Positions 2,719 to 64,000 of a stretch of DNA of 64,000 bases are shown here, piece by piece. A program made the position numbers and the translations under genes. Source of the stretch: an uncultured Spirochaetota bacterium (GTDB taxonomy: Bacteria > Spirochaetota > Brevinematia > Brevinematales > JAOACQ01); the NCBI GenBank assembly GCA_963768055.1, contig CAVYGN010000002.1:1792001-1856000 (forward strand), written 5' to 3'. The notes below the pieces were generated by a model, which did not search any database, was not told where the DNA came from, and was given only the letters and a program-made list of their open reading frames with translations. The stretch's first letter is position 1. Every line of letters starts with the position of its first letter.

Positions 2719-3638
2719 GGCCTGACTCCGAAAGAGAAAAATGCAGTCAAGGATAATATAATTAACGCGAGAGATGTCATCAGCAGAATAAATTGCGGTA
2801 CCTTGGACATCCTGAGCCTGGCTATAAAAGACTCCAGGCAACCTATGAGTACGGCGCTTATCATTTGCACTGCGGTAAATAACAAAATGTAATAAAAAAG
2901 AGGCAGGTTCACGGGAATAATAAGGGCCTCAATAAGTGAAGTAATAACAACCATTTTCATTCCCGATCCGTAATTGATAAGGGCCAAGTCGGGCCCTGAA
3001 TTGTCCAGGACCATTACTTCATGGATCATAGTAAGTTCGAGATGGGTGTTCGGGTCGTCTACAGGCACTCTTGAGCCTTCGGTAATGAGCATAATAAATA
3101 ATGCGGCTATTATCAGGGCCATTATCAATGTTATCAAACTGTTATGCAGATAGGGAAGGGAGAGTATCTTTTCAAAAGATATGCTTCCCGAAAGCATCGC
3201 CAGCGATGCCATGATTATGAAGAAAGCCGGTTCGATAAAGCTGGTAAAAGCCGCCTCGCGGCTCGCGCCCATTCCCTCGAAGCTTGAACCGGTATCCATT
3301 GCGCCCAGGATGCTTAAAAACTTGCCGGTTGCCAGGATATAGGCAAACAATATGAAGTCGCCGTCGAAGGGCAGGACAGAAGAACTTAATGTAATCGGAA
3401 CCAGCAGACCTGCGAACAGGATTGAAGCGAACGTGACGGATGGCGCTATCTGAAAAATAATTGAAGTGGAAAACCCGATTACTTCGCCCTTTTTCAATAA
3501 TTTAAAAAAATCAAAGAACGGCTGAATTACCGGGGCCCCCTTCCTTCCCGTCCAGAAGGCCTTGGTTTTATTAATAATACCGAGATATAAAAAGGGCATA
3601 GTTAAAAGGAATATGATATTTATTATTTTTACCGTCAT
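2715..3638 (-). CDS. hyfC: HyfC/HycD (NuoH-like) membrane subunit
   Basis: GRKGAPVIQPFFD, DTGSSFEGMGASRE and RVPVDDPNTHLELTMIHE motifs; start MTVKII at 3638 (ATGA overlap). Confidence 0.9.
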   Translation of the reverse strand: MTVKIINIIFLLTMPFLYLGIINKTKAFWTGRKGAPVIQPFFDFFKLLKKGEVIGFSTSIIFQIAPSVTFASILFAGLLVPITLSSSVLPFDGDFILFAYILATGKFLSILGAMDTGSSFEGMGASREAAFTSFIEPAFFIIMASLAMLSGSISFEKILSLPYLHNSLITLIMALIIAALFIMLITEGSRVPVDDPNTHLELTMIHEVMVLDNSGPDLALINYGSGMKMVVITSLIEALIIPVNLPLFYYILLFTAVQMISAVLIGCLESFIARLRMSKVPQFILLMTSLALIILSLTAFFSFGVRP

Positions 3639-47840: not shown

Positions 47841-49103
47841 CTATGCATAAGATTGTTGGAGGCATTGGTTGCCATTTTCCTGGGCCCAGCAAATCCCGTC
47901 AAGGGATGCTGCGTTGTATTTATCCATGGATATATTCATCTCATTTAATATAGAGGCGACAGCGGAAAAATTATTCTCCTCGCTATTCTCAACAAGAAGA
48001 AGGAGCCTTCCGAGGATGTTTTTATGCTCGAGCAGGGCTTCGTTAATGTTCTGGCTTAAATTAAGTTCGGAAAGGATCTCTTTCAGGGGCATCTTGAACA
48101 GCGGTTCCATGAGAGAGAGCAAGCCTACCAGGTATGCTTCATCGACCATCGATTTGCCGATATCGGTCTTTGAATTTTTTAATAAGAGTTCCATCGTCTT
48201 CGCCCTTTCAATGGCGGCGAATAACAGGGGATTGCCGTTCGATTTCTCTTTCATGTACGCGTATTCCATAAGGATAAGCCAGTTTAATAGTTGCCTGTGT
48301 CCGAGCAGAGCTATGGCCTGCCTTATAGACTCGATCTTGTGCCTGCTTCCTATGGCCGCCGAATTGATGAATTGCAGAAGATTAATCGTCATTTCAGGCC
48401 ATTTTTTAAATGATCTTTCCAGGTCTTCAATATCCGAGTCCTTATAGATAAGGCTGATCAATTCCATTATGGCAAGTTTCCGTGGATCGACGCCCCTGCC
48501 CTTTATTATCGTAGGCCTGGCGAAGAAATAACCCTGAAAGAGGGTAAAACCCAGGTCCTTATAATAGAAAAATTCCTCCATATCCTCGATCTTTTCGGCG
48601 AGGCATTCGACAGGATAAGATTTAAACATCCTGAACTTTGAAGCGATCAATTCCTTCGAATTCTGCCTGACATCGACTTTTATATAAGCCACCTTTCCGA
48701 AAAGGGGTTCGAAGCGTTTTATAATATCCTCATTGAATACGAAATCGTCGAGAGCAAAAACGAACCCTTCCTGCTTCATGTTATCTATCATTTCAAGGAG
48801 TACCGGGTCTATCCTGGTAGTTTCAAGTATCTCGAGGACAAAACGGTCTTTCTGCAGAGTTTTCAGAAGGTCTCTTTTTATTATTTCATCGTTTATATTA
48901 ATAAATGCGAGCTTGTCTCCCATGAGCTTGGAGAAACTGATATTGTTCAAGGTATTTACAATAACCGTAGCTGTAGCCACAAGATCATCCGTGACCTTTG
49001 CAAAATTATTTTCATCCTTCCTGAAGAGTAACTCGAAACCGACGATATTCTGCGCACAGTCCAAAATTGGCTGTCTGCCCAATAATATATTGCCAGCGTT
49101 CAT
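47841..49103 (-). CDS. EAL-HDOD (YuxH-like) signalling protein
   Basis: RQPI...FELLFR, ALDDF, AEKIE, FQGYFF; C-terminal HDOD. Confidence 0.85.
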   Translation of the reverse strand: MNAGNILLGRQPILDCAQNIVGFELLFRKDENNFAKVTDDLVATATVIVNTLNNISFSKLMGDKLAFININDEIIKRDLLKTLQKDRFVLEILETTRIDPVLLEMIDNMKQEGFVFALDDFVFNEDIIKRFEPLFGKVAYIKVDVRQNSKELIASKFRMFKSYPVECLAEKIEDMEEFFYYKDLGFTLFQGYFFARPTIIKGRGVDPRKLAIMELISLIYKDSDIEDLERSFKKWPEMTINLLQFINSAAIGSRHKIESIRQAIALLGHRQLLNWLILMEYAYMKEKSNGNPLLFAAIERAKTMELLLKNSKTDIGKSMVDEAYLVGLLSLMEPLFKMPLKEILSELNLSQNINEALLEHKNILGRLLLLVENSEENNFSAVASILNEMNISMDKYNAASLDGICWAQENGNQCLQQSYA

Positions 49104-49349
49104 AAGAAAGTAACCCGCCTCTTTTCAAGACTATTCTTGAATAGCAACAGAAATACATCAAAATCAACTCAACTAAATATAATTTAAGATATTAAAAATG
49201 GCAATAAAAGAGGGGAATAGAGATATGTTTATTCTTCACTTTAACTGAACTTATGCTGATTTGCAGTATTTTCCCTGTAATTTGTTTTTTTAATTATTAG
49301 TTTTTATAATGAGAGTTGGTCATTAGGAGCCTTTTTATATTTATAAGAC

Positions 49350-49421
49350 GGGGATGTAGCTCAGCGGGAGAGCATTGCGTTCGCAACGCAGGGGCCGGGG
49401 GTTCAAATCCCCTCATCTCCA
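49350..49421 (+). tRNA. tRNA-Ala (anticodon CGC), CCA not encoded
   Basis: GGGGATG/CATCTCC acceptor stem with G3:U70, anticodon loop TTCGCAA, GGTTCAAATCC T-arm. Confidence 0.95.
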
Positions 49422-49532
49422 GAGTTACTTTTCAGTAATTCCTTTCATTACAATCGGTTGTAAAATCGCAGGATTCGCTGTGTACATTTTGTGTACAATT
49501 TGTAACCACTCAATTCGTATTGGGAGGTTACC

Positions 49533-50594
49533 ATGGGGCTCATTAAAAGATCGAACGGAATATATTATGTTCGAATCAAGAGAAGCGGAATCCTGACAAT
49601 GTTCAGCCTGAGAACCAGAAACAACCATCTGGCAAACGATCTGTATCAAGCATATCTGGTTCAACAATTGAGATCAAATATCGCTCCTTCGGCTTTTAAA
49701 AAAGTAAAAGCAGCTGGCTCACGACAGGAAAAAAAGAAAGATACTCCTTATACAAATCAGTTAAAACATACGTTTGAATCCATTTGGAACGAATATTTCC
49801 AGGCAAAGATGGCAAGTAAACTCTCCAAATCGCAGTTGGGTATAAAAAAACAAGTTTTTCGTCATTTGAAGGAATTTAAACTTTACAAGGTAGAAGGGAT
49901 AAACCAAGCTTTTCTAAATCAACTTTTCATATCATATAGAAGCAAATATACTGAAGACACAATCCGAAAATTCGTCGCGGAATTAAAATGCTTCCTGAAT
50001 TATTGCATCAAAAACGATGTATTTTCAGACAGGGAATATCACAAACTTACTTTTCCTAAAGTAATCACAAAGGTGAGAGACACATTGATTAAAAGGGATG
50101 ACATAGAGAAGATCCTTGAATACCTTAGACAAAATGATGAAGATTTCTATACTTATTTTTTAAATCTTTTAAACCTTTACGGCCGACCAAATGAAATTCC
50201 AGGTCTTCAGAAAAAGAATTTCAACTTCAATGAAAAGCTTTGTAAAGTGTATATGAATAAAACCCGGAAAGAGAAAACAGTTGTTTTGACGGACCAGAAC
50301 TTTATAAACTATATGAGGCAAATGACTGATTGTCTAAACGATGATGATTATATACTTAAAGGCCATAACCAGGGGCCAAGTTACTATCCAAATAAATTCA
50401 GGCGGCTTAAAGAAAAACTCAACTTGAATAGGAACTACTTCTTGTACAGTGTAAGGCACACTGTTTCAAGTTTATTATATGAAAAAACAAAGGATATAAA
50501 GTTTCTTACAAACCAGTTGGGAAATGAAGAGAAAATTCTTATTAAACACTACATTAACACCAATCTTGAGGATTTTAAAAAATATTTAGTTTGA
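49533..50594 (+). CDS. Tyrosine recombinase/integrase 1
   Basis: GRPNEI, NKT, YSVRH, QLGN, KHY; adjacent to the tRNA. Confidence 0.85.
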   Translation: MGLIKRSNGIYYVRIKRSGILTMFSLRTRNNHLANDLYQAYLVQQLRSNIAPSAFKKVKAAGSRQEKKKDTPYTNQLKHTFESIWNEYFQAKMASKLSKSQLGIKKQVFRHLKEFKLYKVEGINQAFLNQLFISYRSKYTEDTIRKFVAELKCFLNYCIKNDVFSDREYHKLTFPKVITKVRDTLIKRDDIEKILEYLRQNDEDFYTYFLNLLNLYGRPNEIPGLQKKNFNFNEKLCKVYMNKTRKEKTVVLTDQNFINYMRQMTDCLNDDDYILKGHNQGPSYYPNKFRRLKEKLNLNRNYFLYSVRHTVSSLLYEKTKDIKFLTNQLGNEEKILIKHYINTNLEDFKKYLV

Positions 50595-50831
50595 GGTAAG
50601 AAACTCTAAGGTCTTATATTTATCCGGCAAGATATTCTGGATCATCCCTTCCAAACATCTCTTCAAGTTCAATATGGCTATTTGTCTTCATTAAAAATAA
50701 TTAAAATATTTAAAAAAATTTTTATTTGTATACAATTAAATGAAATATCACTATTTTTGCCCAAAAATATATACTTTTTTATAACTATCTCAATTTATAT
50801 TTAGATATAAGAGGGAATGGTTTCTTAAAAA

Positions 50832-51911
50832 ATGGAAAAGAAAAGAAGATATTCTAGAAGGTCACATCATAGAAATTTATTTCTTAGAAATGGAATCTAT
50901 CAATTTAAAAAAATGATTAATGGACAATTGATTCGGTTTTCATTATGGACTAATAATTTATCTTTGGCCGAAAACTTACGGGATATTATTCTTAAGGAAC
51001 GATTTTCTGAGTTTAGGAAATTAAAAGATAATAAATCACTTAAAAAAGCTCAAGAATTAGATCTAATTAATAAAAGAACCGAAAATTTGGAACAGGTTTG
51101 GAATGAATATTTTAAATTTAAAGAATTGGAAAACTTATCAACTTCACAAATGAATATTAAAAGAAAAGTTTTCCAAGACTTTTTGAAAAATCAAATTACA
51201 TCAATTGATGATTTTACTCAGTCGAATATTAATAATCTTATGAGTATTTATAAGAAAAAATACCATGATGACAGTACAAAAAAATATGTTTCGGAAATCA
51301 AATGTTTTCTAAATTTTTGTGTCAGAAGTGGTTACTTTACTCGTGAAAACTATGACCGATTATCCTGGCCAAAATTACGAACAAAAGTAAATTCAACTGT
51401 AATCTCAAAATCTGATCTCGAAAAGATTTTTAAATATACCAAACAAAATGATAAGGATTTCTTTTTTTATCTGCAAGCGCTTTATTTTTTGAGTTGTAGG
51501 CCTTCAGAGGTTTTGGCACTTAAAAATGAAAATTTTGATTTTTCAATGTGGACTTGTAAAATCTGGATGAATAAAACAAAAAAGTTCAAAAATGTTCTTA
51601 TTGTTAATAATGAGTTTTGCCAACTACTTATAGAATATTTTCAGAATAAAACTAATGATTATCTCTGTGAACGTCATGAATCAAAGGAATATTATAGTAA
51701 AAAGTTTAAACAGTTGAAAATTCAATTGGGATTAAATTCAAGTTACACCCTTTACAGTTTTCGGAAAAGCTCAGCTTCGCATTTATTTGAAAATACAAAA
51801 GATATAAAGTTTGTATCAAATCAATTGGGAGATAACCAAGCTATGGCAATGAAACACTATATTCATTTTGATACAAATCAATATTTGCAAAAGTATCAAA
51901 ATAGTCTTTGA
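50832..51911 (+). CDS. Tyrosine recombinase/integrase 2, paralog of integrase 1
   Basis: CRPSEV, NKT, YSFRK, QLGD, KHY. Confidence 0.85.
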   Translation: MEKKRRYSRRSHHRNLFLRNGIYQFKKMINGQLIRFSLWTNNLSLAENLRDIILKERFSEFRKLKDNKSLKKAQELDLINKRTENLEQVWNEYFKFKELENLSTSQMNIKRKVFQDFLKNQITSIDDFTQSNINNLMSIYKKKYHDDSTKKYVSEIKCFLNFCVRSGYFTRENYDRLSWPKLRTKVNSTVISKSDLEKIFKYTKQNDKDFFFYLQALYFLSCRPSEVLALKNENFDFSMWTCKIWMNKTKKFKNVLIVNNEFCQLLIEYFQNKTNDYLCERHESKEYYSKKFKQLKIQLGLNSSYTLYSFRKSSASHLFENTKDIKFVSNQLGDNQAMAMKHYIHFDTNQYLQKYQNSL

Positions 51912-51981
51912 TTTTTAGAAATGTCAGTCATTTAAATTTTATGAGAAGTATAAATATTAACAATAAGGAGGGTAAAAAACA

Positions 51982-53026
51982 ATGGAGAAAAATCTTTATG
52001 AAACTTTATTAGGAATCGCTCAAAACTTTGAATTTACCGATATTGACAAAGTTAATGTGGGTGCTTTGAAAAGAAAATCAAAGTCTGAGCTTTATTATAA
52101 CAGGTTTATATTTACTTCTTTAGCTCATATTCCTGATCGAGTAAAAAAAAATCCTGAGAAGTATTTCAAACACTGTTTCTATTGTTTTAAAGATGATCTT
52201 AATATTATTTATAATGAGAGAGGGGGGTTCGGACAATAAACATTCATGGTTTATGTGGCTAATCAACAATTATCAACTAATCTGGGAAGCTTATTATAGA
52301 AGGTGGAATGGTGATTTCGATCCTACTGAGTATAAACTGGCATTCAGCCATAAACAAGTTGTAGAAGCAAAATTCCAAGGTTTCAAATATTGCTATGAAA
52401 GTGGCTACTGGAACCATAGAGAATATAGACTCAGTAATAATTGTCTACTAATAGGAAAAAGTAACATGTTGTACCTTGATATACCGATTGAAGATCAAGA
52501 CAATATAGAAGGGCAAGTGTATAAAAAGATTGATGATGTTTTGCGACTTGGTGTCTTCCAGACTACCAATGAGAAAGAACGAAAGATTATTCATGACCGA
52601 TTCAAATTTAAAGAGATGGAATTTGATATTTATTACAATAGTAAACCTCTTTTTGAGACATTACTCCATGAAGATGAATATCACTATGAAACAACTGCCT
52701 ACCTCAAGGTAAATAAATCATCTGAACTTTATTCCTACAATGTTACTGCTAAGAAAGAAAGAAGAGACTATAACCTACCAGATGATCTCTATAAAATAGA
52801 ATTGCGGTTGAAGTTTCCGTACTTCAAGGAATTGTTTAAGGTTTATCCCGAAGTAAGAACTTTAAATCCAGTCGAGCTATTTGAATGGTTGAAAAGTAGG
52901 ACATCAGCTTATTCTATTATTAATAAGTCGTTGCGAGAGATAAGGGGAATAGTTGAAGAACCGTATATCCGTTGGAAGATTCTGGATGATTTAAATAGGG
53001 AGTGGAGAGAACTGAAAGCCTCGTAG
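51982..53026 (+). CDS. Hypothetical, possibly replication-initiator-like protein; probably one gene frameshifted at the G6 tract 52222-52227
   Basis: AAGGAGG RBS at 51982; removing one G fuses ORFs 51982-52239 and 52193-53026; C-terminal Y..K...LYKIELRL. Confidence 0.5.
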
Positions 53027-53030
53027 CTGG

Positions 53031-53240
53031 AACTTTGATGCCGAAGGCAGCAAAGTTAGTTCCCCGAAACGCGAAGCGTTTAAGTTGTTTACTGCGGGCC
53101 CGCAGGACCGCAGTAAACCCCCTTTAAGGGGTTATAGTTGGCGCTAACAGTTGACCCGCAGGTCAACTGCACAACTTTTGGGTCTCAGTTCCCCAAAAGT
53201 TGCCCGTTACATTGGGGGTCTCAGTCCCCCCCAATGTAAC
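53031..53240. other. Dense hairpin cluster (putative origin or structured RNA)
   Basis: About seven adjacent inverted repeats in a GC-rich 210-bp stretch inside an AT-rich island. Confidence 0.75.
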
Positions 53241-53455
53241 CCAGAAAATTTATTGACCAATAGCAGAGTATTTCAAACCCCCATTTTGAATATTTGATAG
53301 CCTTTTGATTCAGGATAAATTGGGGGATTTGAATTTCTAAATCTTATACAACTGTGAAATTACTTTTTATCAAAGACGTGCATTTTCATTTTCTCTGCCT
53401 GCTTTAAAGTATGGTTATTTCCTTGCAGGTACACTAACAGTCTCTTTTTTAGGGG

Positions 53456-53464
53456 TGTGGATAA
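53456..53464 (-). promoter_or_regulatory. Consensus DnaA box TTATCCACA
   Basis: TGTGGATAA on the + strand; single copy seen. Confidence 0.45.
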
Positions 53465-53624
53465 CAAGCTGAAGACTTGACATAATCTGGTATGGTTATA
53501 AATACTTAAGCTATCTGTTTAGGGAGGGTAGGTTGTTTAAAATTATGGCTAAGATCATTGAGGATTTTGCAGCGATTATAACTTTGGGATAATATTAGAT
53601 AATGGATAGAATGACCATAATATA

Positions 53625-53653
53625 TTGACTTCATGAGATGAAAGAACTATACT
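53625..53653 (+). promoter_or_regulatory. sigma70 promoter TTGACT-N17-TATACT
   Basis: Near-consensus, upstream of the 53729 ORF. Confidence 0.6.
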
Positions 53654-53728
53654 TCCAATGGGGGTAGATCATTGCTTATGCCGGACACTTTAAGATATTT
53701 TTTCAAACAAGATTAAGGGAGGTCTTCT

Positions 53729-54208
53729 ATGTCTAATTATTTCACCCTTGTATCCCATCATATACAAGATCAAGGTCAGAGAGATGAATTTTATCAAGAA
53801 GTCCAGTTCCCTAACAGAAATTTATCAATTGGCTGGGGTGAAGTAAACCATTTTGGGAAAGATTATGATAAGATAAAACATGATATAGATCTTCAATACC
53901 CAGTTTTTAAAGGAACAAATAATCCGGATAACGGAGGCAAGTCTTTATCTATGTTTTGTTCTTTACAGCCCGGTGATATCGTATTCGTTAGAGGGAATGC
54001 TAAAATAATCGATGTCGTAGTTATAACAGGAGCCCCGTCTTATGATTATAATCAAGGGGATTATAAAACAAATAACTATTGTACAAAGATTCCTTTCGTG
54101 CCATTGTTCGAGGACACCAGAATGAGGATTTTGACAATTGATATTCCGGCTGATATTAGAGAACAGGTCCTTTTTGAAGGAGGTAAAGCTTGTAATGAGA
54201 AGAATTGA
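53729..54208 (+). CDS. Hypothetical protein resembling PUA-like N-terminal domains of Mrr/McrB-type proteins; possible late frameshift extending it to 54260
   Basis: SIGWG...F..LQPGDIVFV...VITG..YDY pattern; GGAGG RBS. Confidence 0.5.
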   Translation: MSNYFTLVSHHIQDQGQRDEFYQEVQFPNRNLSIGWGEVNHFGKDYDKIKHDIDLQYPVFKGTNNPDNGGKSLSMFCSLQPGDIVFVRGNAKIIDVVVITGAPSYDYNQGDYKTNNYCTKIPFVPLFEDTRMRILTIDIPADIREQVLFEGGKACNEKN

Positions 54209-54277
54209 AGAAAATATAGCCTTACGCCTGCTTCAAATGATAATTGAACAACTTAATTAAAAGGGAGGTTAAGAAAC

Positions 54278-54526
54278 ATGCCGAACAAGAAAGAAACCGG
54301 AAAGAGAGCTGCAAGTAATGCATCCAAGACTTTGACAAGTAAATCAACTAGCAAAACTTCAAAGGTAGCTGCTGGGAGCGCTTTGTCACAGAGAAAGGCC
54401 CCCAAGAAAGAGACCTCATCTCGAGCTGCTTCAGCTGCATCAAAAACCCTTCGTGATGGCAGGACAAGCAAAGCATCCAAGTCTGCAGCTGGAAGTGCTT
54501 TGGCTCAAAAACCTAAAAGGAAGTAA
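54278..54526 (+). CDS. Small basic Ser/Ala/Lys-rich protein with an internal duplication
   Basis: GGGAGG RBS; two copies of KET..RAAS.ASKTL....TSK.SK.AAGSAL.Q. Confidence 0.8.
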   Translation: MPNKKETGKRAASNASKTLTSKSTSKTSKVAAGSALSQRKAPKKETSSRAASAASKTLRDGRTSKASKSAAGSALAQKPKRK

Positions 54527-55128
54527 TCAGACTTAAACCTTAGTAAAGCCACCCTCTGTTCTCACCAAGATCAATCAACAATAACTCTGGAAAACCTTAA
54601 AGGTAAAGTCTTTTCCACAAGGAAATAGCCAAAACAGATTCCTTTTATTCCATAACGGTAACATGGATAATAGACAGACAACTGATCTGAAACATATGGT
54701 TGTACCCAAAAGTACAGGTGTGGATTCAAAAGTACACCCTATGACCTTGAAGTTCAGAAACTACAAAAAAAGGTAAATAAATTGATTCAGATGGAACACC
54801 CTTGTTGAAAGCATTAGTGTTTTGTGTCACATCTCGGAACTCAGCCCGTAGGCTTCGTTAAGGTTATTTTTGGTTCAGTGGGGTTATTCTTGCACTTAGG
54901 GAAAACATAACCGGAAGGAGACTATTAAATATCTACAAATGGATGAAGAATGATAATCCCAACATCACAGGTTAAAAAGCTAAAGCAAAAGGAAAGGAAA
55001 GAAGGGAATTGGCACAGCGTTAGCAGAAATCCTATTTGTGTTTTATTGTTAGAACAAAGATTAAATAGAAATAACTGGAAATCATATATAATTATTATTA
55101 CTATGCCAGAAATACTTTTGTCAATGCT

Positions 55129-55794
55129 TTGTTCTCTGAAGGAATAACTTTATATCACTCCGAGCATTCAGATGAACTAATCAATAAAATTCAACAGAAT
55201 ATTCCTGAAATAGTGGTTTTGGATGTTATTAATGAAGATTTTACTGGCATATTTGAACTTGTAAAACAAATAAAGAATCATTCATCTGATGAAATGAAAA
55301 AGACAGCGATAATTCTTCTTATAGGCTCTATCGACAAACAAACAATTACTTCCGCAATTCAGGCCGGAGTAATTGGATTTATTAAAAGCAATGCTGCAGT
55401 AGATTTTGTTTACAAATATATTATGGATACTTATCAAAAGGTCCGGGGGGTTCCCCCTGAAAGAAAATATGTGAGGATTAAAATCGAATCTAATGACAGG
55501 ATCGGCATCAAATTCCGGTCTCCTGTGAATTCACGGCTTATTATCGGTCAAATTAAAGATATCAGCTTCGGCGATATCGCTGTAGAATTAGCCGGTACAT
55601 TCCCCCCTGAATCAATAGCCAACGGATCGGAGATAAAGAATATGCAGTTCATTTTAGAAGGAAAGGATGTGTTTATCGATGGAATTGTGGTTGTTTATCA
55701 AAATAAATTTTGCGCATTTAGATTTAAAGACATGACGACAGAAATAAAAGAAATCATTTCTCAGTATGTTTTTAAAAAAATATGCTGTATATAA
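55129..55794 (+). pseudogene. N-terminally damaged REC + PilZ-like protein
   Basis: VVLDV...GFIK (REC); RKYVR and DISFGD (PilZ, G to D change); in-frame stop upstream and no clear start or RBS. Confidence 0.6.
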
Positions 55795-56233
55795 GAAAAT
55801 TTGCCTATTAAGTTAAATCAGTAACTTGTTTAAATCTTGTTAGTTTATGCTTACGATATTTTGCATTTCCCCAAAAATTTCAGATTCGAGTAATATTTCC
55901 AAATCAAAATCTGAATGATTAAAATTAAAATTCTGATCTATAAAATAATAGAGAGGAGTAATAATCGTATACCATGGCTATGAAAGAGCCGTTCGTGGGG
56001 TATTTATTTAAAAAAGATATTTATCTGAAATTACTGAAAGAAGTCTACGAAGGCTGTGATGAATATGGTTGATGATTGGTTTTTAATATGATAGTACTCC
56101 GGAGGGGGATTCAAAATCTGAGAATAAATGAAAAAAGTCCACAAAGGAAGTGATACTTGGGTTCGTGGGGAGGTTAAAAAAAAGTATTTTTAAGAATCTG
56201 AAATTTTCATTCAAATTTATAAATAAATGTAAA

Positions 56234-56312
56234 ATAAGTAGCGAAAAACCTTTGATTTTCTGAATGACTTGTTTTATAATAATATAAGTAGCGAAAATAG
56301 AATATTTCGCTA
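56234..56312 (+). promoter_or_regulatory. Promoter TTGATT-N17-TATAAT flanked by TAGCGAAA repeats
   Basis: ATAAGTAGCGAAAA at 56234 and 56284; inverted TTTCGCTA at 56305. Confidence 0.6.
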
Positions 56313-56325
56313 TTTAGAGGTTTTT

Positions 56326-56970
56326 ATGGAATTAACAGTTTTTCTTGAAGATGAGGAAATTGAACGGCTATTAAGAGCGTTTAATCTTAGAATGAGAAAC
56401 GGCATTATGATGAATGCCATTATCCGGTTAATGGGCTATTGTGGGCTTCGAGCTTCAGAATGTATCGGGCATGAAAAGAGAGCAGGGGGAGGTTTACGGA
56501 TTCAGGACGTAAACCTGAACACAGGTCAAATTACCATAAGAGATTCAAAAGATACAAGAGGTAAAGATCAACGACGTAGGAAGACGAAGAATGGCCGGAT
56601 CGTATTTGCTGGTGGTGAGACCCTCGAGGCTCTAAGAAAATGGTGGACAGATATTCGGGCAATACAATCAATGCTGGAGCCTTATGATGATGATTATTTT
56701 TTTGTGAATAGAAATGGAATGAAGATTTCCAATGCTCAGCTTCGGAAAACCATCCGAATTTATGCCGAGAAAGCAGGGATCCCGCCTGAGAAACGGCACG
56801 CTCATGCCCTGAGACATAGTGCCGGCACCCGTTTTTACAGGGAAACGAAGGATCTGTTAACTGTCCAGAAAATTCTCGGTCATTCATCACCAACAGATAC
56901 AGCACGTTATGCTCATGTCACCGGAGCTGATGTTGAAGAAATTATGCGGAGAGTCCAGAAAAAGAATTGA
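56326..56970 (+). CDS. Short tyrosine recombinase (catalytic domain only)
   Basis: GLRASE, HALRH, LGH, TARY; 214 aa from ATG after AGAGG. Confidence 0.9.
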   Translation: MELTVFLEDEEIERLLRAFNLRMRNGIMMNAIIRLMGYCGLRASECIGHEKRAGGGLRIQDVNLNTGQITIRDSKDTRGKDQRRRKTKNGRIVFAGGETLEALRKWWTDIRAIQSMLEPYDDDYFFVNRNGMKISNAQLRKTIRIYAEKAGIPPEKRHAHALRHSAGTRFYRETKDLLTVQKILGHSSPTDTARYAHVTGADVEEIMRRVQKKN

Positions 56971-57199
56971 CTTTTCATATCACCATAATATTTTCCTATG
57001 AAAATTACTAAACTGGTTTCTTTTAGGTTAATTCTCAAAATGAAACGGTGCATGGGGGCAGTAAGACTATAACTATGACTTCACCACTGTGAAGTATGGA
57101 CAGGAAAGCAGCTGCTGAAGTTCGTAAAAGTTCAGCCTCTATTCCCGCATTGGTGCCATGGAATTTTGCCAACATCCCAAATTGTATCTTACCATTGGA

Positions 57200-57430
57200 T
57201 TTCCAGTCGTCGCCTCGTCGTCATTCATCCCAAGAATTCCCGATCTATGTAGACTGGAGCTTAAATCGCTCCTGATAACTTTAATGAGTGTCGTTTTTAT
57301 GGCTCTGCCCGCAAACAGATTGTTTTGTATAAGTTCCTGGTCCTTACACGCAGGCACTCTATGTCCGGTAGTACTTTGTCGTCATACCGCTAACAGGACT
57401 GAAAAAGCTAATCAACCTGTAGATTATTGA
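57200..57430 (-). pseudogene. Decayed N-terminus of a lambda-family phage portal protein (bounds approximate)
   Basis: Fragments across frames: RLISFFSP, DDKVLPDIECLRVRT, ELIQNNLFAGRAIKT, IDREFLGMNDDEA. Confidence 0.7.
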
Positions 57431-57454
57431 TTATGTTAGGGGTCGATCCAATGA

Positions 57455-57666
57455 TCAGATGTCCCTCGGTAATACGAATCTTGCTATGGAAGTGGATGAA
57501 CCTACATTTAGGTGTCGACATACCCCCCGCCAGTAATTGATATTATTGCGGATTTCCTCCGCCTGGTCGATGGTATAATTCTGTCCCAGAATAAGTGCAT
57601 CGTCTGCTGTTATCCATGCAGACAGCTTTGCCTGGGCCTGTTCTGTTCTTGTGTTATTGCGGACAT
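57455..57666 (-). pseudogene. Decayed DUF6148-like phage head-tail joining gene
   Basis: MSAITQEQ / AQAKLSAWITADDALILGQNYTID..EEIRNNINYWRG...FVLPRDI; frameshift at a duplicated AGAAC. Confidence 0.7.
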
Positions 57667-57775
57667 ACGTGCAGGTTTGTTAGATAAGAAAATTAATTGA
57701 ATTGATTAAAAATATGATTTTTTAAATCTCCTGTAATTTTTAAGGACAAAGGGAGATAACAGGAGAAAAGAATTT

Positions 57776-58823
57776 TTAAGGATCAAGATATTTTTCAGCA
57801 TCTTTATCAAACCATTCCGCTTCATGTAAATATTCTTTTCCAATTTCTTTTAAAAATTTAGATGTTTCAGGCCAATTAACTTCCAATAATTTAGAGTTAT
57901 TGAAGTAGGCATCAGCTAATTCTTTTTCTTGACGGCCACCTTCCTGTAGGCTCCTTGTTGTGGCTCCACGTGAATTATATTTCCCAATTGATAAACCAGT
58001 TTTAATTCTTTCATAACCTTTCTCAATAAATTCTCTTGCAATTAAACATGGCCAAATTTTATCATTTGGAGGTGGAACTCGGGAAAGTATTTCACCAATT
58101 TTATCCTCGGATATACTTTTTCTATTATTTATTTCAGCATAAGTTATTGCTTTATCACACCAAGCTCTAAGATAATCATCCCTTGTTTTCTCTTCCTTTA
58201 TGTTGAATCCAGGATAAGTATGCCAATTTTTTAATACATTAAATGCAAATTGGGCATTTAAAACGGAACTTTCATTAACTTCAGTTTCTGCTTTATCCTC
58301 ACCTTCAGGTTTATAAATATTACATATTAATTCTACAAAACTTTCCGGATTATCATTTATGTCCTGTGAAATGAACTTTGGTTGGACTATTGAATATTCA
58401 AGTAAAGGAAGATAGGCTATTTCCATATGAATTACCCTTTCAGTTGGCAAATCAGTAAACTTATATAAAGCATTAAAAATATTCTCAATATAATGAGTAC
58501 TTAACGAATCACTGAGTATAATATTCCGTTTATCTTCTGGTATGGTTAATACTTTTTCTAATAAAGATAAATAATCATCAAAAGCTGCAAATTTTTCAAT
58601 ATCTATATTACCACTGCCTAAAATTACAATTAACAAATCAAACCTTTCATATTTAATAAGATATTCTTTTACCTTGATAAATATTTCATTTGATTTAATC
58701 CATTGTGGGAAAAAATAATGTAATTTGTTCCAATATCTTTCTTGAACTAAGTGATACTTTTCAAGAAGAGCAAGAATTCTATTATCAAAATCCAGATGGA
58801 ATATTATATCTGTTGCAGTTACA
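57776..58823 (-). pseudogene. C-terminal part of a large hypothetical protein, truncated by the IS
   Basis: The ORF-track start lies inside the IS; C-terminus NSRGATTRSLQEGGRQEKELA...WPET. Confidence 0.65.
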
Positions 58824-58825
58824 TG

Positions 58826-60054
58826 TGACCCGCTCCCCAAAATTTGGTCCAACTTATATGTTAGTATATAATATAAGGAGGACATTTTATGGCGAAGAAA
58901 GGTTTCACACCGGAACAGATTATTCAGAAACTCAGGGAAGTCGAAGTTAACCAGTCAAAGGGCATGAGCATGGCCGAATGTATCAGGCAAATCGAAGTAA
59001 CAGAACAAACCTATTACCGCTGGAGGAAAGAATACGGCGGTATGAGGACAGACCAGGCCAAAAGGCTCAATGAACTGGAAAAGGAAAATAGCAGGCTCAA
59101 AAGGATAGTAGCTGATAAAGAGCTTGACATACAGATACTCAAAGAATTCATGAGGGTTGAATCAAAAAACTCCTCAGCCCGGTAAAGAGAAATTTAACAG
59201 TCATTGAGGTTTGTAATAATCTCGAAATATCTCAACGCCGGGCTTGCCTGACAATCGATCTCTGGAGAAGTTCAGTAAGATACCAACCAAAGAAAACAGA
59301 TGAAGAAGAAAGGCTGACGGAAGACATTATCAAACTGGCGACGTCTTACGGCCGCTATGGATATAAAAGGATCACATCGATGCTCAGGGAAGAAGGATGG
59401 AGGGTCAATCACAAGAGGGTTCTAAGGATATGGCGCAAAGAGGGGCTAAAAGTCCCCAAAAGGCATCCGAAGAGAAAAAGACTGTGGCTTAACGATGAAT
59501 CCTGTGTAAGGTTAAGGGCCGAACATCGCAATCATGTATGGAGTTATGACTTTGTCCAGGACAGGACAAGCGACGGCAGGCCGATAAAAATATTGACCCT
59601 TGTTGATGAATATACCAGGGAAGCGCTGGCTGTGGATGTAGAAAGGCAAATAAAGTATCCCTATTTAATAGACAGATTATCGGAACTGTTTATTGAAAAG
59701 GGAACGCCTGAATATATCCGGAGCGACAACGGGTCTGAATTCATCGCCAAACCGCTCCGGAAATGGCTTAAAAGTGTGAACGTAAAAACCCTCTACATAG
59801 AACCTGGAAGCCCCTGGGAAAACGGATATGTTGAATCGTTCAACGGAAGACTCAGGGATGAATTTCTTAACGGAGAACAATTCGATACGCTTTTTGAAGC
59901 TAAAGTATTGACCGAGAGATGGAGGAGGGAGTATAATACAGTAAGACCTCACAGCTCACTGGGTTACCGTCCACCGGCCCCGGAGGCTATTTTTTTGGCT
60001 GCAAAAGCTTCTTAAACTAACTTATAAACTGGACCAAAGAATGGGGAGAGGTCA
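58826..60054 (+). mobile_element. IS3-family insertion sequence (IS407-like ends), 1229 bp
   Basis: IRL TGACCCGCTCCCCAAAATTTGGTCCA; IRR reverse complement TGACCTCTCCCCATTCTTTGGTCCA; orfA/orfB layout. Confidence 0.95.
58889..60015 (+). CDS. IS3-family transposase OrfAB via programmed -1 frameshift
   Basis: orfA HTH 58889-59185; slippery AAAAAAC at 59164-59170; orfB WSYDF, SDNG, ESFNG (DDE). Confidence 0.95.
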
Positions 60055-60056
60055 CA

Positions 60057-61446
60057 TATAGAAAGCGCTGGACAACTATTTAAACATAGTGAAATGAAAT
60101 ACTTACCTAATTTATCTAATAATATAAAATGTGGCAATTCTCTTATAGCCAGCGATTTTTATGAAAGCAAGGACAGCCTTTTTGATAAAGAAACCTTAAG
60201 ATTAATTAATGCATTTGATTGGGTTGGCTCCAACGGTTTTAAAAAAATCATGGATGAAGGTGGTTTTGATTGTGTGATAGGGAATCCTCCTTGGGGTAGT
60301 TTTATTTCAGAAGAAGAAAAAAAATATTTAATTAAAAAATTTAAGAATAAAAAAGGAGAAGCGGAATCACATTTATATTTTATTGAAAAAGGTATGATAT
60401 TATTAAATCAAAGTGGTTTGTTAGGCTATATAACACCTAATACTTGGTTAACAGTTATAAATTCAGCGGAAATAAGAAATTATTTACTTCAAAATTATTC
60501 AATTAAACATATTCGAGAGTTATCAAAATATATATTCAAAGATGCTCCTGATATAGTTCCTATTCTTGTTTTTATTTCAAAGGATAAGAGCAATAAAACA
60601 TGTGATGCACAATTATCAACAGAAATAAAAATTCAAGAATCTAATTTCAAACTATCCTTTATTTCTAATAAAATTAACCAAGAAACCTGGCTTAATAGTA
60701 ATATGAGTATTATTAACTTAAGATTATCTAAAAGTGTTAAGAGTATTTTAAATAAATGTAATGAAATAAAAAATCATTTAATTGATCTTACAGATATTTT
60801 ATATGGAATAAAAACAGGAGATAATGAAAAATATTTATCATTTCAACCTTTTGAAAATAATTGTGTAAAAGCTTTGAAGACAGGTGAAATTAAGCGTTAT
60901 TATTTAGAATGGAAAGGTTTATATCTTAAATGGAATCCCAATCTTGCAGGCTATAGACAAACCCCTGTTGATATTCCAAAGATTATTATTCAATATATAA
61001 GAAAAATAAGCATGCCAAGAAGAATTATTGCTGCTTTAGATGAAGATGGGGTTTATTATCCGTTGAATAATTACTCTTATGTAATATTAAAACCGAATCA
61101 AGTCTTTTCATTAAAGTACATACTCGGAATTCTTAATTCTAATCTCATAAATTATTATTTCTCAAATACATTTATTGATTACAATATTAAACCTACTTAT
61201 CTTCAGTTATTGCCAATAGTAAATATTGATTTAAATGATAAAATACTCTTGAATACTTATTCAACAATAATTTCTCTTGTCGATCAAATGATTGCCACAC
61301 AAAAAAGTCTTCAAATTGCTCAAATCGAACAGGATAAGGTATTATTAAACCAACAATTTGAAATTCTTAATAAAAAAATAGATAAATTGGTTTATGAACT
61401 TTATGGTCTAACAGAAGAGGAAATTAAGGTGGTGGAGGGGGAATGA
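60057..61446 (+). pseudogene. C-terminal part of an Eco57I/TaqI-like (type IIG-style) adenine methyltransferase, truncated by the IS
   Basis: NIKCGNSLI, GFDCVIGNPPW, LGILNS, LYGLTEEEI; SAM-binding motif I absent; the frame is open back to the IS end. Confidence 0.8.
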
Positions 61447-61537
61447 TTTTAAAAAGTTTGATTTTTACTTATAAGTTTTATTTATCAGATGTATAAGAAT
61501 TTTATTGGTCTGACTGAGTGTGTCAAGGTAGTGGCAG

Positions 61538-62401
61538 ATGAATGAAAATGAATTTGAAATTTATTATGTGAAACATATTTATGTAAATACTTTTAAAAAA
61601 ATAATAGAGGAATATGAAAAGTTAAAACGAACAAATCATATTTGGCTTTTCAAGGGTCATAGTGATTCTACCTGGCATTTATCTACTATGTTTGAAAGAT
61701 GTTTGAGAAATTATCCAATTGATAATAAAAAAAAGATTGAGATTGAAAAAGAGATCATAAAAGAATTTGAAAGAAAAGCGGCACTTTATCTTGATGAAAT
61801 TCCCGACCATAATAATTATTTGGAATGGCTGTCCCTAATGCGGCATTATGGAGCTCCATGTAGAGCATTGGATTTTACATATTCATTTTATGTAGCTTTA
61901 TATTTTGCAATAGAAGAAATGAAATGGAATGAGAAAGATAATAAAATAAAGAGTTGTGCTGTTTATGCCATAAACAATAACTTATTTAAGTCATCTAAGC
62001 TAAAAAGTAGATATTTATTTATGCCAAATATGGATGGATCAGAATTTGATACTGATAAAAAAAGAAAAAAATTTATTTGGGATAAAGATAATCCTGATAA
62101 TTTTGTGTTCAATTTAACTCCTTATTTTTTGAATAAACGGATTACAATTCAACAAGGTACATTCCTTTTACCCTGGAATATTGAAGAAAAATTTGAAGAT
62201 AATCTAAAAGGAAATTGTGATTTAAATTGCCCCAAAAAATCCCAACATTATATAAAAAAAATGATTATTACATTAACAAAAAAAGAAAGAAAAGAAATCA
62301 TTCAAGAACTCCATAAAATGAATATCAATAAAGCGACATTATTTCCTGGAATTACAGGTTTTGCCGAATCTCTCAGCATTAGGTTGGAACTTGATAAATG
62401 A
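61538..62401 (+). CDS. FRG-domain protein
   Basis: WLFKGH, MRHYGAPCRALDFT..YVALYFA, NKRITIQQG, TLFPG. Confidence 0.85.
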   Translation: MNENEFEIYYVKHIYVNTFKKIIEEYEKLKRTNHIWLFKGHSDSTWHLSTMFERCLRNYPIDNKKKIEIEKEIIKEFERKAALYLDEIPDHNNYLEWLSLMRHYGAPCRALDFTYSFYVALYFAIEEMKWNEKDNKIKSCAVYAINNNLFKSSKLKSRYLFMPNMDGSEFDTDKKRKKFIWDKDNPDNFVFNLTPYFLNKRITIQQGTFLLPWNIEEKFEDNLKGNCDLNCPKKSQHYIKKMIITLTKKERKEIIQELHKMNINKATLFPGITGFAESLSIRLELDK

Positions 62402-62759
62402 TTGCTTTTAGATAGGTTGTGAAATGTCAGACCCGAATGAATGAACCTGCAGGAGAGTTGTTGAAGCGGATTATTGAGGAGAAGGGATGAAATAATGAAC
62501 AATTTTTCAATATATAAATACTTACCCAACGATTTTGCTGATAACTTTATTACAAAAGGTGAAGTCCTTTTTAGACCTCTAACTTATTTTATAAAAGAAT
62601 TTAATGAAAAAATTACTCTGATATCAGATATTTTTATATTTATACTTATGGCCATGTATTTTATTAGTTCAATATAAACAGGTATATAAATCGGAATTTC
62701 CCATTATAATAAATGTTTTGTCTTTTCCCTCTGCATTTCCATTCCAGCCTGCCACATTG

Positions 62760-62795
62760 AATTTTGATAAAAGCGCCAAGAGGGGATAGAATAAA
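62760..62795 (+). repeat. 36-bp promoter-containing direct repeat, copy 1
   Basis: 35/36 identical to 63887-63922; TTGATA-N17-TAGAAT. Confidence 0.85.
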
Positions 62796-62828
62796 GGAAT
62801 GTCAACAAATAAATTTTAAGGGGAAGAT

Positions 62829-63194
62829 ATGAAAATAAAAACACGAGAACAAATTCCATCTGAAGCTATTGTTGAGCGTTATGGTGTTAATAAAGAGCTT
62901 GTGATTGGTGAATATGATGATTCTAACCAGATTGTATTAAGAATAATAAGTCTTGATGTAAACAAGTTTATTCCTGTCCATATACATGATTTTCCTCATA
63001 TCTGGAAGATTGAAAAAGGTCTTGGCTTATTAACTGATAATGATGGTATTGAGCATAGAGTAGAGGCAGGGCAATTCCTTTTTATTAAAAATAATGAAAA
63101 ACATGGTATTAGAAACATTGGGGATGATAAACTTGAATATTTATGCTTCGGGACAATTGAAAGCGAAAAAATAGCTCCTCAAAAAGCTGATTAA
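62829..63194 (+). CDS. Cupin-domain protein
   Basis: PVHIHDFPH...G.G and FIKNNEKHGIRN. Confidence 0.85.
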   Translation: MKIKTREQIPSEAIVERYGVNKELVIGEYDDSNQIVLRIISLDVNKFIPVHIHDFPHIWKIEKGLGLLTDNDGIEHRVEAGQFLFIKNNEKHGIRNIGDDKLEYLCFGTIESEKIAPQKAD

Positions 63195-63235
63195 AAAGAT
63201 TTTTGGAGTATTAATGGTTCGATTATACTGGAGGC

Positions 63236-63847
63236 ATGATGAGTAATGAAATACAATCTCTTGGATTTAATCCGACTGGTATAAAAGGAAAATTTACTGG
63301 TATTTTAATGAATATTATTCATGGCAATCAATATAAAAAAATTATTAAAAAATACATACTGAATAGAGTTAATTCAAGAGATGAGCTTAAAATATTAGAT
63401 ATTGGTTGTGGAGGAGGAAAAGCAGTAAATATTTTTTCAATATTGTTAATGAACTCAAAAATTTATGGAATTGACCATTCCGCTGATATGGTAGCTCTTT
63501 CAGGCAAAGTCAATAAAAAAGGCATTAAAGAGGGTAATGTTGAAATAAATCAGGGAGATATAATAGCTCTTCCTTATTCAGATAGATATTTTGACATGAT
63601 AACGGCTTTTGATACTATAAATTTCTGGAATGATTTTAATAAAGCTATTTCTGAAATAATAAGAGTATTGAAAAAAGGCGGGGCTTTCATTATAGTAAAC
63701 GCTTATCCAAAAGAAGGGACAAAATGGTGGGATTTTGTAAAATTTAAAAATGATAGTGAATATCGGGAAGCATTGGTAAAACATAATTTTTCAGATATAA
63801 ATATTATTATTGATAAAAACAATATAATAATACAGGCTAAAAAATAG
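63236..63847 (+). CDS. Class I SAM-dependent methyltransferase
   Basis: ILDIGCGGG, YGIDHS, FDMITAF. Confidence 0.85.
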   Translation: MMSNEIQSLGFNPTGIKGKFTGILMNIIHGNQYKKIIKKYILNRVNSRDELKILDIGCGGGKAVNIFSILLMNSKIYGIDHSADMVALSGKVNKKGIKEGNVEINQGDIIALPYSDRYFDMITAFDTINFWNDFNKAISEIIRVLKKGGAFIIVNAYPKEGTKWWDFVKFKNDSEYREALVKHNFSDINIIIDKNNIIIQAKK

Positions 63848-63886
63848 TCTATTGCTCTTCCCCCCTCTGCTTTGCCAGACTCTAAT

Positions 63887-63922
63887 AATTTTGATAAAAG
63901 CGCCAGGAGGGGATAGAATAAA
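63887..63922 (+). repeat. 36-bp promoter-containing direct repeat, copy 2
   Basis: Match to 62760-62795; followed by an RBS and ATG at 63944. Confidence 0.85.
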
Positions 63923-64000
63923 AGAAATAAATGAAGGAATATTATGGATACAAATGAAATAAATGATATTGAAATGATAAAATTATTAATTGAAATAATT

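Follow-up and report, generated by a model that had tools for sequence, protein, structure and literature searches.

Proteins of the Rep_trans class act as rolling-circle initiators and as MOB_T relaxases in known ICEs (integrative and conjugative elements) and IMEs (integrative and mobilizable elements) (PMC5704250). According to the same source, IMEs with a tyrosine integrase insert into genes, tRNA genes among them, at the 3′ end, IMEs that combine a tyrosine integrase with a Rep_trans protein are documented (for example, IMESag-rpsI or IME_Sga2069_rpmE), and MTnPi1-3, three IMEs of Prevotella, carry a tandem of two tyrosine recombinases. NicK of ICEBs1, Orf20 of Tn916, and RelSt3 of ICESt3 are described as MOB_T relaxases (PMC6499999, PMC9371924, PMC12614216). 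In this study, a 64-kb stretch of DNA from an uncultured Spirochaetota bacterium (contig CAVYGN010000002.1; hereafter the window) was analyzed by purely computational means, and all coordinates given below are positions in this window. The subject is the interval 49422 to 54740, in which a first-pass annotation had placed, next to a tRNA gene, two tyrosine recombinase genes (int1 and int2), an uncharacterized gene, a hairpin array, and two small open reading frames (ORFs). The tRNA gene, int1, int2, the array, and the two small ORFs are all present.

Our analysis indicates that the uncharacterized gene very likely encodes a deeply divergent nicking enzyme of the Rep_trans type, and that the interval is probably the module nearest to the tRNA gene in a small element of the IME-like or integrative rolling-circle kind, which may be inactive in the copy found in the window. 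The likelihoods attached to this reading and to the alternatives weighed below overlap in part.

Results

Reading frame of the putative nuclease gene

The gene that follows the two recombinase genes had been described as a single gene of about 347 aa. As sequenced, it instead consists of two overlapping forward-strand ORFs in different frames, one of 85 aa (51982..52239) and one of 277 aa (52193..53026, with the true frame starting at about 52226), and the two are split at a run of six G residues (G6; 52222..52227, forward strand). The N-terminal piece corresponds to residues 1-82 of an intact 340-aa homolog, P0002 (55% identity, E 2e-29), and alignment to this homolog shows that it holds the FTxxDK strand discussed below. 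The match ends at ...ERGG, and therefore the change of frame lies in the G6 run. The C-terminal piece holds the invariant E and the T-x-Y, YNVTAKxE, and LYKxE motifs of the family. When this 277-aa piece was used as the query, 3 of the 319 candidates reached E <= 0.001, namely the piece itself, P0002 (60% identity), and P0003 (341 aa, 36% identity).

A second split gene was observed far from the interval. A gene for a NuoL/Mrp-type membrane subunit (3635-5624, reverse strand) is divided into ORFs 4740-5624 and 3635-4765, with positions 4-140 and 164-286 of the Proton_antipo_M profile falling on separate ORFs. The frame changes at approximately 4800-4850, outside any long homopolymer, by an assembly indel or in a pseudogene. 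The indels of the nuclease gene and of the NuoL/Mrp-like gene are either assembly errors or genomic pseudogenes. Because the frameshift of the nuclease gene falls in a homopolymer, and because the second frameshift hits a housekeeping gene, the former may be an assembly error.

Predicted fold and motifs of the putative nuclease family

A profile search of 1.84 billion representative proteins recovered 20 proteins at E <= 0.001, including the two pieces encoded in the window, so that the gene belongs to a very rare family and has 18 relatives. In the family alignment (P0002 numbering), residues E209, Y248, A252, R257, D264, K267, and E269 are invariant, residues Y236 and N249 are nearly invariant, and the characteristic motifs are T-x-Y, YNVTAKxExR, and D-x-[YF]-K-x-E.

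Two independent AlphaFold models, one of P0002 and one of the compact 287-aa member P0012, were compared with 350,542 chains of the Protein Data Bank (PDB) using Foldseek. The P0002 model has a mean predicted local distance difference test score (pLDDT) of 65.6 with a confident core at residues 141-300, and the P0012 model has a mean pLDDT of 87.5 and a predicted template modeling score (pTM) of 0.78. For P0002, the RepDE chains 4cwe_A and 4cwc_A ranked first and second (probability 0.98 and 0.96), and chains of RepSTK1 (4cij) were found at ranks 5, 7, 8, and 10. For P0012, ranks 1-5 and 7 were occupied by chains of 4cwc, 4cwe, and 4cij (E 3.8e-4 to 8e-3, probability 0.99 to 0.69), and TATA-binding proteins (TBPs) came after the Rep_trans chains. 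The Rep_trans catalytic domain is described by Carr et al. as a crescent of two 5-strand modules with a connectivity shared with TBP, and with conserved residues on adjacent strands (PMC4797284). The TBP matches are explained by this shared sheet connectivity. For both models, therefore, the three solved Rep_trans entries are the best matches and TBPs follow, in line with a crescent-shaped sheet of TBP-like connectivity, with template modeling scores (TM-scores) of only 0.24-0.30. On the basis of the predicted structures, Rep_trans is the nearest fold for both models, and the match is not a tight superposition.

The motifs of Rep_trans proteins are given as N′ (Asp), I (RxD), II (T/SxY/ExG), III (YxKxxE), and IV (W/LxRxE), with the catalytic Tyr of motif III on a β-strand (PMC5714925). 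The acidic residues of motifs N′, I, and IV are the three metal ligands of these enzymes, which nick DNA site-specifically in a metal-dependent reaction that leaves a covalent 5′-phosphotyrosine link. The nuclease family has candidates for all five motifs, with the order kept. The reading frame of pT181 RepC crosses the start of its record, and RepC was compared as a single sequence with the family profile using hhalign, which returned one local alignment (E 0.038 for a single comparison). In this alignment, which covers motifs II, III, and IV, the family and RepC sequences are paired as T-x-Y with ETKY, YNVTAKQE with IYNKKQE, and LYKIELRLK with LWRVEIELK. A search seeded with RepC listed at least 120 matches, all of them staphylococcal and at least 86% identical, and was of no use for a profile-profile test. 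Residue Y248 aligns with the Tyr of IYNKKQE in RepC and, in both models, closes a β-strand next to a short helix. The invariant residues E209, Y248, R257, D264, K267, and E269 are located on or just past predicted β-strands, as described for Rep_trans (PMC4797284, PMC5714925). In motif IV, a Lys takes the place of the Arg, and the invariant E269 lies in L-Y-K-I-E. The Asp of the N-terminal FTxxDK, the candidate for motif N′, is present in most members but not all. Look-alikes of the nuclease found with a protein language model belong to clusters with Rep_trans (31-32% of members) and Phage_CRI (14%).

Several observations weigh against the assignment to Rep_trans. The family has no consistent Pfam match, with Rep_trans matched by 0 of 19 members at E <= 1, and 17 unrelated Pfam families were matched once each across these 19 members. 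A profile search of the PDB sequences gave nothing meaningful. The Foldseek TM-scores to Rep_trans structures are low, at root-mean-square deviations of 11-17 Å and an identity of about 8-11%. The spacing of motif III is Y-x4-K-x-E and not YxKxxE, which places the K and E at +5 and +7 rather than at +2 and +5, and motif I has a Glu (E209) for the Asp while the Arg of RxD is not conserved. The gathering score of PF02486 was not reached, and the window pieces gave no match to this model at E <= 0.01; pT181 RepC, used as a positive control, matched it with E 7.7e-11. No match to the family was found in NCBIfam, PHROGs, or PADLOC, or by tblastn in 72,556 plasmids and 50,697 phages (with P0002 as the query in the phages). 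Judged by its sequences, the family is not a member of PF02486 in the present form of this model. Even so, the matches of fold and motifs make the first-pass suggestion of a Rep-like, replication-type protein plausible. The accompanying statement that the locus has no relaxase is not supported, in that the fold and the motif alignment make a very divergent Rep_trans-type nicking enzyme the most likely product of the gene.

The hairpin array as a candidate origin

Straight after the stop codon of the nuclease gene, seven hairpins lie head to tail in a block of 210 bp (53031..53240, forward strand) with a GC content of 52.8%, compared with approximately 33% in its surroundings. The individual hairpins are H1 (53031-53057), H2 (53067-53081), H3 (53087-53118), H4 (53119-53131), H5 (53148-53169), H6 (53172-53202), and H7 (53206-53240), all given on the forward strand. 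The DNA fold of the array has an energy of -69.7 kcal/mol compared with -30.1 ± 3.75 kcal/mol for shuffled sequences (z = -10.55), and 0 of 200 shuffles were as stable. The 490 nt past the array are unstructured (z = +1.1). Hairpins H6 and H7 have the loop TCTCAGTYC in common, while their stems differ and are each perfectly paired, and CCCGCAGG is common to H3 and H5. The loop motif GGGTCTCAGT, searched with 0 mismatches, occurs in the array only and nowhere else in the window. Loops shared by unrelated stems would be expected of sites that a protein reads in hairpin form. The origins of Rep_trans proteins are described as presenting the nick site in hairpin form (PMC4797284, PMC5714925). The array is a probable candidate for a double-strand and/or single-strand origin or for an origin of transfer (oriT), and the proposal of an origin made in the first-pass annotation is plausible in view of the seven confirmed hairpins and their fold.

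The same could not be said of a DnaA box that was considered as an origin signal. This single perfect 9-mer, TTATCCACA (53456..53464, reverse strand), is a chance match, and boxes with <=1 mismatch occur 14 times in the window compared with 17.6 expected.

The 9-mer CGCTAACAG at 53142..53150 (forward strand) matches, over all 9 nt, a part of the loop in the oriT hairpin that PMC10233336 prints for ICEBs1. It occurs 2 times in the window compared with 0.16 expected, and it was noticed post hoc, with the ICEBs1 sequence as the starting point. It is located at the 5′ foot of H5 and not in a loop, and its 7-nt core CTAAYAG is at chance frequency window-wide (11 compared with 11.3 expected), both of which speak against its being the nick site. 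As a pointer to the nick site, this match is a lead only. The second exact copy of CGCTAACAG (57388-57396, forward strand) lies, without an obvious hairpin, in ORF-poor DNA between a recombinase remnant and a phrog_18693-type fragment that are described below, and may be a chance occurrence or the trace of another origin.

The array could also be unrelated to replication or transfer, being a repeat element, a structured RNA, or terminators stacked one after another, with the protein having some other DNA-related role. A loose scan for terminators accepts two of the hairpins, but T-runs are absent. The array folds strongly as RNA (z = -7.5), yet an Rfam search at E <= 1 in 48000-58000 returned only the tRNA and two chance-level matches. 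The confinement of the loop motif to the array means that it is not a dispersed repeat, and the sharing of loops by different stems points to loop-specific recognition. This explanation draws further on the related element L001, described below, which has no equivalent seven-hairpin array, and on the lack of a family-level sequence match for the protein. The case for a nicking enzyme that was made above from fold and motifs is unaffected. We consider this explanation very unlikely.

A satellite or remnant of a filamentous (ino-type) phage would likewise account for an initiator next to a run of hairpins. The intergenic region of phage f1 consists of some five hairpins in a row, and among integrative satellites, RS1 and TLC carry replication genes only. 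In such a helper-dependent element, the nuclease would be an initiator like gpII or Phage_CRI, and the hairpins would resemble an intergenic region of several hairpins with plus and minus origins and a packaging signal. The Phage_CRI clusters among the language-model look-alikes are consistent with this, as is the match of the 82-aa ORF described below to a phage family (phrog_5079). Motifs like those of Rep_trans are reported in Phage_Cri by Carr et al. (PMC4797284), and the replication protein of CTXphi is assigned to Rep_trans (PMC4797284, PMC5714925). In contrast, no morphogenesis ATPase, coat, or adsorption family was matched in 49422-64000, and L001 is also without such genes. The P0002 tblastn search and a blastn search with the 5.3-kb interval were both empty in the 50,697 phage records, and the latter search gave a single trivial 70-nt match in the plasmids. 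A phage satellite is, on this evidence, very unlikely, to about the same degree as an unrelated hairpin block.

The tRNA gene and the ends of the locus

A tRNA-Ala gene (anticodon CGC) is located at 49350..49421 on the forward strand (ARAGORN; Rfam RF00005, 67.1 bits) and is the only tRNA gene that ARAGORN found in the window. It is likely to be the integration target, with the element on its 3′ side. The tRNA and recombinase matches support the earlier view of this locus as an integrase-bearing insertion at a tRNA gene, and the family library scans are in agreement with the statement that capsid and conjugation genes are lacking, since none were matched among the scanned ORFs of >=60 aa in the interval.

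Two neighboring copies of the motif TGTAC(A/AA)TTTG are located between the tRNA gene and int1 (49481..49502, forward strand) and are candidate recombinase-binding sites of the left end, as judged from their sequence and position. A motif search found two copies of TGTACTTTT at 54706..54736 on the reverse strand, inverted relative to the left-end copies. Within the window, TGTACWTTT occurs 4 times compared with 0.91 expected, at 8374, 49481 (forward), 54708 (reverse), and 54728 (reverse), and a related copy is found at 49492. The motif thus marks both proposed ends, in inverted orientation (49481 versus 54708 and 54728). A global alignment of the two proposed ends was weak outside this short motif. 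The TGTACWTTT copies are the sole support for a right boundary at approximately 54740, which is unproven.

No right attachment site (attR) was recognized. The 3′ 23-mer of the tRNA gene, with <=3 mismatches allowed, matches only itself in the window, and no second copy above chance was found in the window with the 3′ 15-mer (<=3 mismatches) or in a general repeat search. Likewise, when 49300-49480 was compared by blastn (word size 7) with all other parts of the window, nothing above chance was found. The first-pass right end at 54740 could not be upheld; it has no attachment (att) repeat, and low-GC foreign DNA continues to the end of the window.

The two tyrosine recombinases

The first recombinase gene, int1 (49533..50594, forward strand), starts 111 nt past the tRNA gene and encodes 353 aa with a Pfam PF00589 match (E 3.2e-12), a SAM-like domain, and a match to the phrog_1 integrase family. 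The second, int2 (50832..51911, forward strand), encodes 359 aa and matches Phage_integrase in Pfam (E 1e-12) and a PHROG integrase. They are separated by an AT-rich spacer of 237 bp (50595..50831; 23.6% GC). The two proteins are paralogs with 38% identity over 338 aa (E 8e-77). As two full-length tyrosine recombinases near a tRNA gene, they give the locus an integration/excision module of its own, as is found in IMEs. No excisionase-like gene was found in the window.

Int1 and int2 were aligned with the three database relatives of int2, the integrase of L001, and a third recombinase of the window. The canonical tyrosine-recombinase catalytic set served as the reference for the R, R, Y, HxxR, and G-H positions. 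The two Arg and the Tyr of the catalytic set are invariant in this alignment. Int1, int2, and the three relatives have YxxR in place of HxxR, and G-N/D in place of the G-H of the other aligned recombinases. Because the whole clade has these unusual substitutions, they are read, from the alignment, as a clade trait and not as decay. Besides itself, int2 has only 3 relatives at E <= 1e-5 (46-48% identity), and it gave no match in the plasmid sequences. A spacer fragment that appeared to resemble the C-terminus of the ORF at 57776-58885, and that would imply two insertions, was rejected on the finding of no tblastn match there.

A related element in a Leptospirales genome

A scan of species-representative genomes matched 180 stretches, among which one locus, L001, was confirmed. 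L001 is in a metagenome-assembled genome of an uncultured member of the Leptospirales and contains, in this order, an integrase gene (391 aa), a 73-aa excisionase-like gene of the HTH_17 family, and a 337-aa homolog of the nuclease. It is bounded by 78-nt direct repeats that are 99% identical, lie 7463 bp apart, and include the 3′ 46 nt of a tRNA-Gly gene. Flanking direct repeats that include the end of the target gene, a feature of IMEs, are thus present around L001 and were not found around the window copy. Elsewhere in L001, there are genes for zinc-ribbon membrane proteins, for a GNAT acetyltransferase, and for an XRE regulator. Structure is also seen in the 146 nt that follow the homolog (z = -4.9), but they do not form a seven-hairpin array, and the 350 nt before the homolog are unstructured (z = -1.7).

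In the one related locus out of one, therefore, the nuclease gene is in a clean, small, tRNA-integrated element. With regard to the question of whether the components co-occur elsewhere, a Rep-like gene is found together with an integrase inside att repeats, whereas the order of two integrase genes, the nuclease gene, and the hairpins is seen in 0 of 1 related loci. Because the L001 integrase is unrelated to int1 and int2, and because the int2 relatives are not on the contig of P0002, the integration modules that accompany the nuclease family seem to vary.

An 11-bp inverted repeat, TATTCTAATAG ... CTATTAGAATA, with a 25-nt spacer was also observed in L001 (13605-13651), upstream of the XRE regulator gene. 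The sequence TTCTAATAG in this repeat equals nine bases of the ICESt3 oriT as quoted in PMC10233336. The repeat could be an operator or a nick region.

Small ORFs and the surrounding island

Two small ORFs on the forward strand follow the hairpin array. The first (159 aa; 53729..54208) has no match in Pfam, NCBIfam, PHROG, or PADLOC. Its language-model look-alikes are mostly DUF8426 clusters (score 0.95-0.96), one of which also has an EVE domain; as a lead only, it may be a DUF8426/EVE-like protein, and it may act as a PUA-like reader of modified bases. The second (82 aa; 54278..54526) matches phrog_5079, a phage family of unknown function, in two stretches (E 2.1e-27). It is very basic and rich in Lys, Ser, and Ala, consists of two copies of a repeat of approximately 40 residues, and has 64% GC at second codon positions (GC2), which is unusual for the region. 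This protein could be a small nucleic-acid-binding protein.

The GC content at third codon positions (GC3) is 43-55% in the four upstream host genes and 18-36% from int1 to the end of the window, with the exception of an IS3 insertion sequence (47-53%). The interval thus forms the portion nearest to the tRNA gene in a mosaic island that is at least 14.6 kb long, and the tract of foreign composition spans at least this length and not 5.3 kb.

Several genes were observed beyond the proposed right end. A protein with receiver and PilZ domains is encoded just past it (55129-55794, forward strand; GC3 31%) and may be island cargo or a host gene. A third tyrosine recombinase gene (56269-56970, forward strand; 233 aa, TTG start) encodes a protein that consists of the catalytic domain alone, corresponds to positions 103-288 of XerC in an alignment, and has canonical HxxR and G-H; by its sequence, it appears to be left over from a different integrative element, with the N-terminus lost. 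The IS3 element (orfA, 58889-59185; orfB, 59380-60015) lies between two truncated genes, one for the C-terminal 311 residues of a phrog_18693-type protein of 1258 aa (57776-58885, reverse strand) and one for a Type IIG restriction-modification enzyme, of which the C-terminal half remains (60094-61446). This layout suggests an IS-associated rearrangement. At least 5000 plasmid records match the IS3 transposase, and the best among the matches listed are from Alphaproteobacteria (66-68% identity), so that the transposase is not informative about the taxonomy of the window. An FRG-domain protein (61538-62401, forward strand) matches the PADLOC candidate defense family PDC-S15 (E 2.8e-42). The Type IIG fragment and the PDC-S15/FRG gene give the distal island the character of a defense island.

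These neighbors bear on a further explanation, in which the locus is a composite dead island, with int1 and int2 being separate insertions at one tRNA hotspot. The att sites and most of the cargo would have been deleted afterward, the nuclease gene would be a pseudogene, and the remainder would neither move nor replicate. Several of the facts that favor it also count against a single functional element. The GC3 of int1 (36%) differs from that of int2 (22.5%), and this gap hints, at the level of composition, at separate histories. However, the spacer between the two genes contains no att-like or tRNA-like sequence and no copy of TGTACWTTT (blastn with word size 7; motif search), and both integrases are full length with the catalytic R, R, and Y kept. 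The nuclease gene is frameshifted as sequenced, but the frameshift is in a homopolymer and a housekeeping gene is also frameshifted, so that an assembly error may be responsible. No attR was found, and low-GC DNA extends to 64000 with the truncated third recombinase, IS3, the phrog_18693 fragment, and the Type IIG C-terminal half; the perfectly paired stems of the hairpins, for their part, argue against long neutral decay. Finally, the single related locus examined, L001, has one integrase that is unrelated to int1 and int2, and none of the three relatives of int2 is on the contig of P0002. Taken together, a composite dead island seems to us rather unlikely, and a single small integrative element remains the reading that we prefer.

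Discussion

In the mechanism that we propose for this element, one or both recombinases would excise it as a circle. With the invariant β-strand Tyr and a metal held by conserved acidic residues, the Rep_trans-like enzyme would cut one strand at a site that a hairpin of the array presents. The nick would start rolling-circle replication of the excised circle and/or pass a single strand to a helper transfer apparatus. The remaining hairpins of the array may be protein-binding sites or a single-strand origin for synthesis of the complementary strand. The window copy is possibly inactive because its nuclease gene is frameshifted, unless this is an assembly error, and because it has no recognizable attR. 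In the earlier description of an integrative and self-replicating element, the integrative part stands and self-replication is probable, with the lack of an attR and the frameshifted gene counting against the description as a whole.

A bolder proposal is that the locus represents an unrecognized lineage of tiny tRNA-integrating rolling-circle replicons outside the Firmicutes, with an initiator from a new and deeply divergent Rep_trans/Phage_CRI branch that escapes all current family models, a compound origin of seven hairpins that unites the functions of nick site, binding site, and single-strand origin, and, in this member, a recombinase pair that acts as a hetero-complex. We regard this proposal as doubtful. 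If it is true, a class of integrative plasmids or satellites, indicated by the 18 relatives, would lie hidden in bacteria that are poorly sampled.

What is new in this locus is the very divergent family of nucleases, the compound block of hairpins, their combination with two paralogous integrases, and a probable host range outside the Firmicutes. The Rep_trans nuclease fold would gain a very divergent and unannotated family (18 relatives among 1.84 billion representatives), and at least two genomes tie this family to elements integrated at tRNA genes. Should the family be active, small mobile elements of this kind in under-sampled bacteria escape the automated searches for relaxases and replication initiators. 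With the hairpin block, a defined substrate is at hand for studies of origin recognition by enzymes of this type. The locus adds no new class of mobile element, and the window copy may be dead.

Comparison with known systems

The first-pass annotation had set the locus apart from the layouts of recombinase-in-trio (RIT) elements, ICEs, and phage-inducible chromosomal islands (PICIs), and this holds, as each layout, like that of inoviruses, fails at a defining feature. In RIT elements, three tyrosine recombinases, each of a distinct subfamily, are arranged in tandem. The two recombinases of the window locus belong to one clade, and the third (56269-56970) is truncated and 4.4 kb away. PICIs and ICEs share with the window locus a tyrosine recombinase with a fixed site, but no packaging, primase, or capsid-redirecting genes of the PICI kind and no secretion genes of the ICE kind were detected here.

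Plasmids of the pT181 family (RepC/RepD; 4cwc, 4cwe, 4cij; PMC4797284) provide the best structural match to the nuclease, with the same order of motifs and the Tyr on a β-strand. Both they and the window locus have a GC-rich hairpin origin, which is a candidate in the latter, in AT-rich DNA. Unlike the window locus, pT181 is a free plasmid with no integrase, and its origin is inside the rep gene, whereas the seven-hairpin candidate origin of the window comes after the nuclease gene.

The MOB_T proteins of ICEBs1, Tn916, and ICESt3 are Rep_trans enzymes of integrated elements that are described as both the relaxase and the rolling-circle initiator of the excised circle (PMC5704250). The nick site of the ICEBs1/ICESt3 type is reported in a hairpin with a G/C stem (PMC10233336), and the 9-mer CGCTAACAG is common to the ICEBs1 oriT and the window. 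The ICEs with MOB_T relaxases encode a type IV secretion system together with a coupling protein, neither of which is present at the window locus. Many MOB_T relaxases are described as having an N-terminal helix-turn-helix, which was not seen in the window nuclease. The MOB_T hairpins, as given in these sources, read C-run, loop, G-run, whereas H6 and H7 of the window read G-run, loop, C-run.

Like the window locus, MTnPi1-3 of Prevotella intermedia have two tandem tyrosine recombinases on a small mobilizable element, but their insertion, as reported, is into AT-rich DNA and of low specificity, whereas the window element is at a tRNA gene (PMC5704250).

The streptococcal IMEs, as described in PMC5704250, resemble the window locus in being small and in having their own tyrosine integrase, a Rep_trans-type protein, few cargo genes, and no mating-pore genes. 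Their insertion is site-specific and targets a conserved gene at its 3′ end, as is likely here. By the definition in PMC5704250, IMEs are excised and transferred with help from a conjugative element. In the window locus, the counterpart of the oriT and relaxase that IMEs carry themselves would be the hairpin block and the (frameshifted) candidate nuclease, and no secretion-system family was matched. The window locus differs from the streptococcal IMEs in having no Pfam Rep_trans match, an altered spacing of motif III, two integrases, a tRNA-Ala target, no att repeats that could be found, and a host that is not a Firmicute (L001 is from the Leptospirales). The earlier claim that the locus fits no IME layout does not hold against these comparisons, given that IMEs in which a tyrosine integrase occurs together with Rep_trans, as well as IMEs with two recombinases, are already documented (PMC5704250). 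Rather than an undescribed mobile system, the locus is best regarded as a possibly decayed variant of the elements that combine an integrase with a Rep_trans-type protein.

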